The notes under the pieces: generated by a model
Databases searched by the model: none
The model's input: only the letters and a program-made list of their open reading frames with translations
Told to the model about the DNA's origin: nothing
Program-made: the position numbers and the translations under genes
In this document: positions 18,701 through 24,700 of the stretch, one piece after another
How positions within the stretch are numbered: position 1 is the stretch's first letter
How the letters are laid out: each line of letters starts with the position of its first letter
NCBI GenBank assembly: GCA_019058365.1
Contig: JAHPZE010000022.1
Span: 1 to 64,000, forward strand
From: Promethearchaeota archaeon
Lineage (GTDB): Archaea; Asgardarchaeota; Lokiarchaeia; Sigyniarchaeales; SOKP01
DNA length: 64,000 bases
Reading direction: 5' to 3'

Positions 18701-21700
18701 TATATAAATACGATATATTGAATGATGGAACTGAATATGTTGGTGGAACACTTCATTTAGATCTCAATGTTGGATTTAAAGATGTTATTTATTCAGAATT
18801 AACCCAAGTGTTATGTGATAGTTATACCCTAGATATCGAGTTATTTAGAATGTATACGGATAATGACGATGAGATTACCTTACATCGGATAGGGAAAACA
18901 ACAATCCCGCTCGATACCACTCTTTTAGGATATCATGAATACACTTTTGATATATCATTAAGCGATTTCTTCAATTATCCTGAAGATCAAGAAGAATTTA
19001 TAAGAGCTATTACCCGAGGGACCTCAAATGACCTTTATGTAGTGATAAATAGTTCAATCGTGAACTGTTATGTTGATGGGAACCTATTTAAAGGAATGTA
19101 CGCCCATCAGCTTACTTCAGCAAATATGGAAATTCAAACTGCACAATCTCAATTAGTATTTAACGATGATGATGTTGATATACCTTACATTCCAATCTCC
19201 CAAAATGATGTTGTATTAACAAAAGTAGCTCCTGGAAGCTATTTATTCGACTCAAGTGCTTTATCATATGATTTTAATTTTATCTTAGATGAACTTCACA
19301 CCGATACTACTATATTGTGTAATAATACTGATTATACATTCGATTCTGAGTCAAAAACGATTACTTTACTCGGAATTTATCGTGATTATGCAGGATATTT
19401 GCTTGCAGATATTACATATAAAGCATTTGAATGGCAAAGTGGAAGTGTATCCACTTTAGAACCAATAACGGTCTCGTTTTCCCATGACTATGTGAATAGT
19501 ATCACGAAATATTTAGAATTATCGCTTCAATTTGATCAAGATGGCATTCCAGGAGTAGAACTTGAAAGAATTGATGAGAATTCGGGAAGAGTGGTATTGG
19601 CTTCTGAGAAAAAAGCCCCATCTCTTCTTAATATCTATATGTATAATTTTATTACTAATACGTGGGAATGTATTGATTTTGTTACCTACGACGATTACAG
19701 TGGAACTAATACCTTTTCTTATGTAGTTGATCGAAATTTCATTACATTTGAAAATTTTTTCAATTCAACTGTAACAGACGAGTTTGAAGCCAAATTTATG
19801 TTTTCTATAGATGAGGATATGGGAGAGAGCTTTACCTCTCATGCAACCTTTAATATAATTTCTATTGAAGCTAATCTCTATTATGATACTCCTGATTCTG
19901 AACACTCCATTAACCCTGCTGTTGAATTTGATGTAGATTTGACTGACTATCTTACAAATAATGAGATTTATGTAGAAGAAATATCTTTGGATCTGAGTTA
20001 TGAGAGCGATATTGAGTTTGATTGCGCCTTTTTATTTGCCCAATACCTTCTTTTGGAAGAAAACTATAATCTATACATTATGAATAAGTATCTTGAATTT
20101 GAGGAAATTGAGTTTGAAGACGACTCTATCACCCTTTCTCGAGAAGACATTTATCAATATATATTCTTTGATATGGAAAATGAAAGATATTACCTTACAC
20201 TAATGTTAGAATATGATTGGAATTGCATTCTTGAGATGAATTTAGGGAGTGATTCCAAGCTTGAAGTTATTTCCACCTTAAATTTACTCAAATATGACCT
20301 TTCTGTGTCATACACGCTATATGAAACTACGCGTATTTCTGCCTGTGAAATTAATGTTCCATATCAACTTATGGCAATTTATGCTCCCAATTATATACAA
20401 GATGAAGATTCCATTTATGTATCACCTGACAATGATGAGATAATTGATATTGGAATATTCGGAGGATTTTTACGAAATACCAATACAAAACAAAGGCTTA
20501 TGCTCCGACAACAATTATTTTATAATTTTACAGAAAGCCAAACAGGATGGTCTAATATCCTTTTAGATCAAGAGTATTCCGATGTAATATTACGATTTAC
20601 TGTACCATTTGGCTATTTACAGTCTCCTAATACCTATTTAACTAATACCACTACATTTATATTTAAAACTGATCCGGATGTTGTTGCGGTGGAAATGTAT
20701 TATAATAATGGTGAGCAATATATTAAAATTGGGGATATGGAAACAGATTCACTTGACTCTACTCTATTTTCTTATATATGGACCGATATTATTGGCGATA
20801 CAGGAGCTTCAACATTAGATCCTATTTATATGATGTTTAATATAACTGACTTATTTGGACAACATGCCAAGTATTATTATAGCAGAGTTGCCGAATTTGA
20901 TATTCCCGCTCCTACGATTAGTATAGGCGATGGGACAAAAGATTATCAGAATCAATATATCGCCGATCCAGACACTCCTATTACTTTTAATCATAACGAG
21001 GAATATTTTCAATCCTATAACCCTCTCTATGTTTATCCGACTCAGCCTGGTGATTTTTATAATATTTATGGCTCAAGTAATTGGAATGGAAATCTCTACA
21101 CTTACGATGACGATTCATTTACAACTTTTACTTCTGATGCTGTAACATTTGATTATGATTATGAAAGTGGAGATTCATACTATTATGAGAAATGGAATGA
21201 AGGCTTCTCCGCTGAAGACCATATGACTCATGAATATTATCCCGACGATCATAGTTCTTCTTATTCGGTTGAAGGAAATTTATATATGGAGAATAATTTT
21301 CCTTACGAATATTACCAAGAAGACTACTCAGGGTGGAATTTAAATTATAATTCAACTGATACAACTTCTTCTTTCAGTAATGGTGATCTAAGTTCTGAAA
21401 TTAATAGTGATATCACTTCTAATACTCCTATTCAAGCACAGATTCCTACTGGAGATTTCGATATGATTAATGGTACATCCAATTGGGCGGGAGATCTTGC
21501 TGTTGCAAATGGTGCTTCATATACTACATTTACTTCTGCATCTAATGTCACCGAAGGGTGTTATCCCGCGACATATTCTTTTGAAGGCGAAATAGATGGA
21601 ACAACTGGGACAGACATAGATTTCATAGACTATGTATCAACTTACGGTACTTGTAGGATCGACGCTTCTTATGGTGGTCATAATAAGGTACTCTACGTAA

Positions 21701-24700
21701 AAGATTCATCATTTAGCGCAGGATTGCAATTTCACCATTATTTAGATACTTCGAGAACAACTGGAACTGTGGAATATTGGTTCGCAATGACAGATTTATA
21801 TTATGGTAACAATGATTATGTAACTTTCTATAGTTTGGATAATAATGGTCATGCTGGGTTTACTATAGCTGCAACAGATGGATTGTTTATTGATGCTCAG
21901 TCGAATACTGCTTCTATGGTATATAATACATGGTATCATATTCGAATAGATTTTAATTGTACCGCGGGAACATACGGACAGTATGATTGGTACTTAAACG
22001 GAATTTTACAATATTCTAACGTTGAGATGGGTGATAGCTCTACAAATGTTGAGAAATTGGTTATTCGTGGGACTTCAGCGCCTCAATCTGAATCTTACTT
22101 TGATGCATTTGGATTTTCATGGGATGCTAACTATATTCGCGGTGATAATTGCTATTGTTATAATTATGAAGACGTTACATCTGATTTTGAAAGCGAAGAC
22201 ACATATACAGTAGGTACTGATATCGGTTTTATAGATTCTAAGACTATTGGTATGCTTGCGGGAATAAAACCAAGTTTCGATGAACATAAAAAAGTCCTCC
22301 ATCTTATAACTGCTCTCAATTTACATCAAGCAAATAATTATTTCTCTTCTGCCCAAACCTCAGGTACGGTCGAATTCTATATTAAGTTGGCAGGAACAGG
22401 CGTTAATAAATATATCGAAATATATCATGATATTAACAATAGACTTACGTTATGCTGGGGAAATGACGGTAAAGTATATTACTATAATGGAGCCTTCCAA
22501 GATACTGGAGAGACTTATAGTGGTAATGTCTGGTATCATTTTAGAATAGAGTTCGATACTGGGAGTGATTGGCATTTATGGATTGACGATGAAAGTATAG
22601 ATGACGGGAATGGGTATGATTATGTTGGTACTCCCTCAAGTTTTTCTTATTTTAGGTATTATTCGGATCTTGGCGGTATTATCTGGCTTGATGCTGTTGG
22701 CTATAGTTGGGATCCTAATTATTTTGTTGGTGATAATAAAAACCTCGAATATCCCGAAAGTACACCTCTCGATTCGACACTCAATTTTGATATAGAGACT
22801 CAGCTACCTGATTATGATGGTACCATTGATGATGTAGATTTAAAATATAGTTATAAAAACGACCAAGGAAAGCAAGTGACCATCCGAATTTATAATTTTG
22901 CTCAAGAAAATTGGAACACAGTTATCAATGATGCAGTATATTCATCATTTACGCCACAATCATATGATATTTCTAGTGATTATTATGACCAAAATGGTAA
23001 TTTGAGATTTAGATTTGAAGGGGTTCAGACAAATGTAACTTATTATTTCTACTTAGATCAATTTAAAATAGAATTAACATCTGTTGGAACTGATCTTAAT
23101 GCGGATATTACGAAAGGCCTCAGTTATGCTATTCTTAATCGATATGATACAGGGTTTTCAAATTATCAGAAAACGTATGATATCATAGTAGAATTTTATT
23201 ATACTTTTACAAAAGATAATGCAGATTATAGTGATTTTGCCGAATTTTGGATGGAAGGGTCCACATATCAATTAACTAAGGATGGGAACCCTCATTTCTT
23301 CAGTCAGACAAAACAATGGGATTCAGCCTCTCAATCTACCTTTGATATGAAATTTGAGATTTCTAACGGACTTTTAGAGCTTTCTAATATGGATTACGAT
23401 ATTACCTTCAAATGCTTAGATACATCAAGCAATATTGATTTGAGCCAAAACATGCTCATCGAATTTCCAAATGAAGGAGACCTCTCCCCATTTGAACAGC
23501 AAAACGGTATGTGGTTTATCAATACGACATATGATTTTGACACCATTAACGATGGAAAGACCTATCAAAATAAATATGGAAGGACAAATAAATTAGAAAT
23601 TATTTTTAATGTAAATTGTAGTAGTGCTTCATATCCAGAAGGAATTTGGTATGATAGTGCGTATTCATTTACTACAAGTAGCTCCAGCTCCGGTACTCTT
23701 ATATTCAATGTATCATATTATATGGATTCACATAATTTGGACGCATTTATGGATTTTGAAGTAGAATATATCATTGCGGGGGACCAAACAGATATTACCG
23801 TCTCAGACCTTACATTATGGGATTATAGAGCGGGTGTCCCTGCATTACTGGAATATGAAATGTATTTGGACTTAGATCAGCTTACGTACAGAGATACGCT
23901 GGACAATGTTGAATTACAATATGCTTTCAAGACCGATAATAATCAATTGGTAGAACTATATATTTATAATTTTGATACTCCAGGATGGGTATTATTTAAT
24001 GATAGTGTGTATAGTACTTTTACCCAACTCTATCAAGATATCCCCTCTTCTTGTATAGCTGATAATTATCTTTCTACTACAGAAGATATTAAATTTAAGT
24101 TTGTTGGCGAAAATTGGGATAATACGTTTAATTATTACTTAGATCAGTTTAGGGTCGAATATACAGTTGAATCGAAAGAGAGGATGATCGAACAATATAG
24201 AATTATTGACAATAATGCCGGCTATGTTTCACCATGGATTACATTTAATTCCAGCTTAATTACAACATTGAATAACTTGACCTATACTTCAGATAATTTT
24301 ACCATCGAATATCGAGTAATTGACGTTGCGGGAAATATTGGCGCCACCACCGAATATAATGGGGGATATACGTCCATTCAGTTTTCCAGAGAAAAAGCAA
24401 TGACGCCTACCGATGATACTATAGACCTCAACAGCGACCTTGCGTTGGAACGAAAGATCACCTTTACCGCCGATTTTGGAGGAATGGAGTCCTTAGACGT
24501 GTTTATCAACGGCTTCAGATACGGCACACGGGCTCTCAATGTAGGTGGAGATAATTATGAACTCTCTTTTGGCACCGAAAATACCGAAAAAACCTTACTT
24601 GCCTATTCAAATTCGTTAATTTCTCCTATAATTTATTCTGATATTGATCCATTAGATCATGTTTCATGGGAAACTCGTAATAATGATAGCTTCTATGTCA

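Follow-up and report, generated by a model that had tools for sequence, protein, structure and literature searches.

A predicted side arm of five nested split domains with a ConA-fold tip in a giant protein of an Asgard archaeon

Analysis of a 64,000-nucleotide stretch of DNA from a Promethearchaeota archaeon (assembly GCA_019058365.1, contig JAHPZE010000022.1; hereafter the window) revealed that a single open reading frame (ORF), located at 760–44406 on the forward strand and encoding 14,548 amino acids with a chain mass of 1.6 MDa, contains a side arm of domains nested inside one another. Comparison with homologues and structural models shows a predicted arm in which the chain runs out and back through five split domains and carries two ConA-fold modules at its tip. 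The order of levels is Ig > A > B > C > A' > two ConA-fold cassettes, that is, five split hosts plus a tip, or six levels. The arm comprises amino acids 6714–7872; an earlier note on this DNA, made from the sequence alone, had named 20899–24336 (amino acids 6714–7859). Its parts, all on the forward strand, are listed in chain order.

20899–21006 (+), amino acids 6714–6749: Ig-like host, start half; level 1; halves contiguous in a relative (locus L045, genome G084)
21037–21141 (+), amino acids 6760–6794: domain A, start half; level 2; joined to A-end, matches positions 3–143 of the hidden Markov model (HMM) of uninterrupted A
21175–21297 (+), amino acids 6806–6846: domain B, start half; level 3; touches B-end in the two-chain model
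21298–21429 (+), amino acids 6847–6890: domain C, start half; level 4; contiguous with C-end in the orthologue P0011; touches C-end in the model
21445–21543 (+), amino acids 6896–6928: domain A', start half; level 5; predicted contact 6924–7430
21562–22149 (+), amino acids 6935–7130: tip cassette 1, ConA-like beta-sandwich; shares 30% identity with cassette 2
22171–22740 (+), amino acids 7138–7327: tip cassette 2, ConA-like, with the fold of a sialidase-associated carbohydrate-binding module (CBM), by fold search (BT_1020) and Atlas PF22585 clusters
22774–23082 (+), amino acids 7339–7441: domain A', end half; weak PF14741 match
23089–23427 (+), amino acids 7444–7556: domain C, end half; contiguous C in P0011 matches galactose-binding-like jelly rolls
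23428–23829 (+), amino acids 7557–7690: domain B, end half; placed by HMM parse, two-chain model, and P0011 fold match
23845–24168 (+), amino acids 7696–7803: domain A, end half; within the two-chain model interface
24187–24375 (+), amino acids 7810–7872: Ig-like host, end half; contiguous with its start half in L045/G084

HMMs specific for individual halves parse the stretch as IgS AS BS CS AS CAS CAS AE CE BE AE IgE (S, start half; E, end half; CAS, cassette); the B and C labels were initially assigned by position and later checked against P0011 and the models. The motifs named in the earlier note lie in frame at the positions given for them, which are 20899 (D6714), 21046 (P6763), 21448 (T6897), 21562 (Y6935), 22765 (P7336), 23845 (L7696), and 24196 (Y7813). 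That note had recognized the nesting but under-counted its depth as at least four levels: the spacers of ~100 and ~255 amino acids that it described are halves of two further split domains, B and C, predicted to be jelly rolls, so that five hosts are split. Searches within the protein matched A-start to A'-start (55% identity over 29 amino acids, E 5e-5), A-end to A'-end (38% over 94 amino acids, E 1e-15), and cassette 1 to cassette 2 (E 1e-13); judged by these matches, each is a true paralogous pair. The inserted domains are themselves hosts and their ends follow in mirror order, as in nested insertion in the sense of ECOD. Throughout the whole protein, all six start–end pairs are nested (five of them in the arm), with P ~0.003 when end labels are shuffled. 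Among homologous proteins, 34 of 35 are fully nested, with 154 of 155 possible pairs against a null mean of 100, a count taken over kin that are not independent.

Relatives provide natural controls. The alignment with the orthologue in genome G084 (L045) jumps from amino acid 6749 to 7810, leaving the Ig domain whole and an insert of 1,060 amino acids missing; when joined, the Ig halves of our protein are 48% identical to this contiguous Ig over 101 amino acids (E 5e-34). In P0011, which is arranged as Ig>B>C, domain C is contiguous. Uninterrupted A domains occur in L044 and L047–L050, in proteins of 3,600–4,000 amino acids from relatives, and an uninterrupted form of B was not seen in any relative compared. 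Against an HMM built solely from uninterrupted A domains of other genomes, start halves from many proteins match positions 2–35 and end halves match positions 34–143. As the earlier note had expected, joined A-start+A-end and A'-start+A'-end each cover this model from end to end. A cognate start adds 11 bits (A) or 20 bits (A') over the end alone, whereas wrong starts add little (Ig, 4 bits; B, 2 bits; C, −1 bit).

Nesting depth, which the earlier note had suggested comparing, varies among relatives from 0 to 9 split hosts. Across 18 rows at this Ig site, start and end counts rise together and the insert ranges from ~0 to 2,340 amino acids; in every row the ends equal or outnumber the starts, and the HMMs sometimes overlook short starts. 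The maximum number of split hosts is one in L045, three in P0011, four in L034, L052, L054, and L057, five in our protein, six in P0004, eight in L036, and nine in L031 (Ig B C A B C A B C). L036 also has a LamG domain that is split around the stem. The tips found among relatives consist of one to three cassettes, one or two "T" jelly-roll modules, LamG-containing inserts, or a repeat resembling a beta-propeller; stem halves remain 35–55% identical across genera while these tips are exchanged. The returning arm is matched in 20 of 68 sampled genomes of the same family and, by the A half only, in 2 of ~230 other genomes of the phylum, counts that are limited by incomplete genomes. A second family of membrane-anchored proteins, with 1,100–2,900 amino acids (P0023, P0024, P0027, P0029, P0030, P0041, and others), contains the B>C>A>cassette stem again in a different host context. 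In P0039, P0043, P0045, and L038, cassettes also interrupt loops of the C and B halves.

Predicted structures agree with this parse. AlphaFold2 modeled amino acids 6757–7806 (1,050 residues; alignment of 46 rows) with a mean predicted local distance difference test (pLDDT) score of 83 and a predicted template modeling (pTM) score of 0.48. The Ig level was judged through L045 and P0011, because MAFFT placed the outer A halves on the Ig halves when given a 1,173-residue stretch. Outgoing halves mostly received a pLDDT of 80–94, and A-start and A'-start were given the same strand pattern. The pLDDT falls below 50 at model residues 40–49 (the outgoing A–B linker, amino acids 6796–6805), 189–196, 377–397, and 576–580, which include the cassette joints. 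The outgoing (6757–6931) and returning (7333–7806) segments were also folded as separate chains. Their score of 0.81 compares with 0.00 for the best of three controls; the mark was reached by 58 of 80 solved pairs and 2 of 110 mismatched pairs, a calibration that is rough because our own alignments were used. The two-chain runs share at least 89% of contacts, with a partner pLDDT of at least 85. The surest contacts join B to B (6823–7566 and 6841–7681), C to C (6848–7550, 6861–7450, and 6877–7539), and A' to A' (6924–7430), and the best ones occur in the reverse, anti-diagonal order that the earlier note had sought. Together with the homologues and the co-descent of mirror halves described below, this docking supports its proposal that the mirror order reflects an out-and-back chain whose stem domains are each built from an outgoing and a returning segment. 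The discontinuous halves are thus predicted to form common domains, with B, C, and A' supplying the top contacts and A lying in the interface.

The model of the minimal orthologue P0011 reached a pLDDT of 86 and provides the stem fold matches, since fold searches with the long model were filled by the cassettes. Its contiguous C (residues 92–235) matches galactose-binding-like jelly rolls (best Z 11.2, root-mean-square deviation (RMSD) 2.3, 118 aligned). For residues 50–369, ~125 residues align to single solved jelly rolls (Z 9–10, RMSD 3.3–3.6), including a C5-epimerase sandwich, CBM29, and a furin P domain; these matches, which are of moderate strength, cover the modeled split B across the inserted C domain.

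The cassettes had been called lectin-like in the earlier note, and the predicted structure indeed matches the ConA fold: the closest hit to the tip cassette is the lectin-like domain of BT_1020 (Z 19.4, RMSD 2.3 Å, 166 aligned). Cassette 2 falls with Atlas clusters carrying PF22585; Pfam at E ≤ 1 returned no match for either cassette. The range of these matches (181–562) would have cassette 2 completed by a strand from the start of cassette 1. This arrangement was not counted as an extra level, as single-cassette rows were aligned in that way and the pattern is a possible artefact. Among the stem domains, A'-end resembles PF14741 below the cut-off (E 0.0024, beginning at profile position 31 of 126), A also matches PF24972 at a sub-threshold level, and uninterrupted A falls only in unnamed clusters by Atlas features. 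We take the motif order of A to recall F5/8-type C or CBM32 domains, presumably with the split at the apex, across from the termini, an arrangement that would produce a linear stalk. The contiguous form of the backbone host resembles Big_3/Big_13 clusters by Atlas features (0.91–0.93), which together with its motif gives a lead to an Ig-like domain. A sequence search of the PDB with the returning arm found no match.

Several observations weigh against this interpretation. Every structure described here is predicted, the fold of our own sequence covers A to A' without the Ig level, and its pTM gives little confidence in the overall shape of the arm. Residues of A-start and A-end appear in the interface list, and A–A pairing is not among the top contacts; moreover, halves of a common fold may pass the complex test through their likeness to solved jelly rolls. 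No arm domain passes Pfam cut-offs. Identity of the cassettes to solved lectins is 6–16%, and a ConA fold alone does not specify function. Finally, the absence of the insert from G084 indicates that the arm is dispensable.

It is possible, although we consider it somewhat doubtful, that the nesting is real and the insert is jointed or a compact cluster, with B–C as one rigid unit and hinges at A–B, A', and the cassettes. Such a cluster would agree with the low pTM and the four low-confidence segments, and the most thoroughly studied nested arm, Si3, combines an elongated shape with flexible subdomain junctions (PMC10895346); on the other hand, each joint is crossed twice by short linkers, the Ig>B>C orthologue was modeled with a pTM of 0.67, and a strand runs unbroken from C into B with a pLDDT >90. 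The B–C joint is the only one formed by such a continuous high-confidence strand. The earlier note had envisioned a rigid side arm that makes a branched filament of a single polypeptide. The side arm is supported, poor model scores at the A–B linker and the cassette joints leave its rigidity hypothetical, and branching holds in topology only, in that the chain leaves the Ig domain and comes back.

We think that the side arm is probably one out-and-back hairpin that extends exchangeable tips of carbohydrate-binding type and whose depth is changed by block exchange. The chain would exit the backbone Ig-like domain after its first strands and lay down the first two to four strands (33–45 amino acids) of the putative jelly-roll domains A, B, C, and A'. 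The two ConA-like modules would fold at the far end, and the returning chain would supply the missing 100–135 amino acids of A', C, B, and A, and then of Ig, in reverse order. The stem most likely acts as an extender that holds the tips off the body of a membrane-anchored protein, a spacer role suggested by RTX adhesins, in which split domains project binding modules (PMC12077191). By analogy, the arm could serve in attachment to, or recognition of, glycans on the surfaces of partners, prey, or substrates. Depth and tip probably change through insertion or swapping of closed start…end blocks, with double crossover or gene conversion in the homologous flanks at start and end as the simplest route; block exchange is preferred because slippage on one limb would unbalance the halves. 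The best DNA repeats in the stretch are 28–50 nucleotides long with 68–80% identity, and a repeat search gave no evidence of either recent duplication or mobile-element terminal repeats. This decay indicates that block events are old, with no sign of an active switch.

It is also conceivable, though unlikely in our estimation, that repeated insertion of modules at permissive loops produced the arm as a tolerated side effect, which adds bulk, shields the protein with glycans, or is neutral, and binds nothing specifically. The very variable arm among other orthologues besides its absence in one would fit, as would insertion of the same cassette at amino acids 2125–2524 and 8285–8497 and in another protein of the genome; the sequence identity that stem halves keep across genera despite tip exchange argues against it, as does the recurrence of the B-C-A-cassette stem in the many proteins of the second family.

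A and A' are homologues, and in the uninterrupted-A HMM each of the two starts does as well with one end as with the other, which leaves room for pairing of halves in parallel order, or between two protein chains. For six proteins that contain two or three B-C levels, we set the divergence of outgoing halves against that of returning halves in all 192 pairings. Mirror pairing ranks 3rd (rho 0.47) and parallel pairing ranks 152nd (rho 0.26); five proteins favor the mirror order and P0004 favors the parallel one. Such mirror co-divergence indicates that halves descend together as closed blocks. The contiguous forms of Ig, A, and C in relatives fix the partners, and with the mirror order of unlike domains in 34 of the 35 homologous proteins and the anti-diagonal contacts, they render parallel or two-chain pairing very improbable. 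We give practically no credence to a series of tandem independent domains or linkers whose symmetry arose by chance or by assembly artefact: the start halves are short (30–45 amino acids) and weak alone (A'-start, E 0.06 against the uninterrupted-A HMM), but contiguous homologues, nesting statistics, two-chain docking, the P0011 fold, and joined-half HMM scores all oppose it, as do a contig that spans the stretch without differences and a layout common to orthologues in other genera. Nesting thus withstood the challenge posed in the earlier note, which was whether the halves are independent local domains. The contig in question, a single Logan contig (48,907 nucleotides, depth 77) that may come from the source sample, carries the whole stretch with 0 differences over 12000–30000. 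No RNA data set is listed among the sequencing runs that hold this DNA. Candidate joints in sequencing data that skip parts of the stretch were rejected, as their sides span merely 24–25 nucleotides at a likeness of 85.

The giant ORF (760–44406, +) begins with ~12 hydrophobic segments (amino acids 205–560), followed by an acidic, sequon-rich beta region (amino acids ~600–12,100); it also has hydrophobic blocks rich in Gly and Ala and a Lys-rich, sequon-free C-terminal region that differs between orthologues. N-glycosylation sequons number 1.0–1.5 per 100 amino acids in the acidic region, up to amino acid ~12,100. From the hydrophobic N-terminal segments, and from the contrast between the sequon-rich acidic body and the sequon-free C terminus, we infer that the arm is an extracellular part of a membrane-anchored surface protein. 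Six actin homologues are encoded in the same genome, as fits a Loki-type Asgard host. Such giants remain unannotated because split halves escape Pfam.

Orthologous giants contain 11,000–20,000 amino acids and are colinear with our protein to amino acid ~12,850. Beyond this point, their C-terminal regions (1,000–1,700 amino acids; window 39300–44406, loci L068–L077) are mostly unrelated and gave no Pfam match; our own is 22% like that of G101. A conserved body with a variable C-terminal region is a trait of polymorphic toxins, and this region looks like a polymorphic payload; Pfam gave no toxin match in the C termini of eight relatives or of our protein. A leucine-rich repeat (LRR) gene adjoins the giant gene on its 3' side in five of nine loci, on the same strand in three and convergent in two (window 44424–46046 (−); L071:10502–11431; L072:4238–5794; L076:12219–13898; L070:13084–14160). 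These genes, among ~20 LRR genes in the genome, possibly encode immunity partners of the giant protein. In the remaining loci, a small ORF or an Arf-like GTPase gene occupies this position.

It is tempting to speculate that the arm belongs to a telescopic stalk, through which an Asgard family tunes reach and specificity by inserting a closed B>C>A block within another such block, with swappable tips and a range of split hosts that starts at zero and reaches at least nine, and that use of several sites produces a tree of arms. We advance this idea tentatively; such arms might provide target recognition for a protein that delivers a polymorphic C-terminal payload on contact.

Other parts of the protein and its genome contain related features. 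Additional cassettes form a pair at window 7150–8331 and a single copy at 25612–26250, sites that are empty in several orthologues and thus represent more optional insertion points. A LamG domain at window 3379–5694 (amino acids 874–1645) is split by ~590 amino acids, constituting a second nested arm of the same protein; this insert is missing in G029, where amino acid 915 joins 1463. Just upstream of the Ig host (window ~20630, amino acid 6625), the backbone is interrupted in G084 (L045 amino acids 2152–2462, ~310 amino acids) and G077 (L046 amino acids 841–2486, ~1,650 amino acids) by inserts that contain A halves and cassettes, which marks an alternative branch point. Elsewhere in the genome (C53:20678–28495, +), a 2,606-amino-acid protein contains seven cassette-like modules (six by BLAST), each of which interrupts an Ig-like repeat directly behind its first strands; its last Ig-like repeats are uninterrupted. 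Several relatives carry, immediately upstream of the giant gene, a gene for ~600 amino acids that has no Pfam match (L079:3211–5013, L081:2772–4625, L080, L084); our own contig begins too near the giant gene to reveal it. Window 46575–58835 harbors ordinary metabolic genes encoding an FGGY kinase, an FAD oxidase with a CCG iron-sulfur partner, a phosphohexomutase, SIS and GlmS-like proteins, and a GlmU-like nucleotidyltransferase.

Deep nesting is rare and poses a folding problem: during export, strands totaling ~215 residues stay incomplete until as many as 1,000 further residues, or more than 2,000 in relatives, have followed and their domains can close. The series found at one site (empty, 3, 4, 5, 6, 8, and 9 hosts) constitutes a natural experiment on folding order, mechanical strength, and the gain and loss of balanced halves. 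The arm family also supplies specific candidates for the complex, unassigned structures observed at the surface of Asgard cells, and it could serve as a scaffold in designing branched single chains.

The principle of a projection made of nested, split domains is already known, and the arm is an extreme case of it. In the pilus tip adhesin RrgA and in flagellin (D0–D3), the chain likewise runs out and back, domains are assembled from N- and C-terminal segments, and the tip is variable or binding; these proteins differ from the arm in their fixed depth of two to four, unrelated folds, and separate polymerizing subunits, where the arm branches within a single 1.6-MDa chain. RTX adhesins (Aeromonas AhLap and relatives; PMC12077191) are closer. 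In these proteins, the chain leaves an Ig-like backbone domain after its first strand or strands, a ligand-type module buds, and the chain returns; they carry a carbohydrate-binding module at the tip and show limited further nesting (a vWFA domain with an insert). Their ligand-binding domain sits directly on the split domain, at one or two levels, whereas our arm interposes four stem domains and belongs to an archaeal protein with N-terminal membrane segments, in which Pfam found no match to the RTX nonapeptide beta-roll or a type I secretion signal over the whole protein.

Within the same lineage, a 5,416-amino-acid titin-like protein and a "badge" protein of Nerearchaeum (10.1101/2025.07.22.663070), complex surface proteins of Ca. 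Lokiarchaeum ossiferum (PMC9834061), and listed giant genes of Asgard archaea (PMC8813620) present a similar picture of giant, membrane-anchored, adhesin-like, beta-rich proteins in an envelope without an ordered S-layer. Compared by description only, they differ from our protein in that the accounts at hand mention tandem domains or bare lists of giant genes and no nested stems. Our literature search, which was incomplete, turned up nothing published on domain nesting in giant proteins of Asgard archaea, nor any account of a three-domain stem that repeats to variable depth at a single site.

A parallel in depth is Si3 of the RNA polymerase β' subunit (RpoC2). A 2026 survey of 2.7 million domains and 48,551 insertion events found single-level insertion to be dominant and showcased Si3 of cyanobacterial RNA polymerase, with its six levels, as a complex case (PMC13114784); the crystal structure of Si3 revealed an elongated, partly flexible arm of discontinuous domains (PMC10895346). 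As proposed for our arm, recursive A1-B1-C-B2-A2 nesting generates an elongated appendage whose inner sandwich-barrel hybrid motif (SBHM) domains derive from distant segments. Membership of the arm in the Si3/SBHM group was ruled out, as its host is a giant membrane protein and its domains match jelly-roll and ConA folds. Si3 is cytoplasmic and builds 640–690 amino acids from one small repeat, whereas the arm, which is probably extracellular, combines three unlike, putative jelly rolls that repeat as a triplet with exchangeable tips; its orthologues span 0–9 split hosts, the deepest of which exceed the six levels showcased in the survey.

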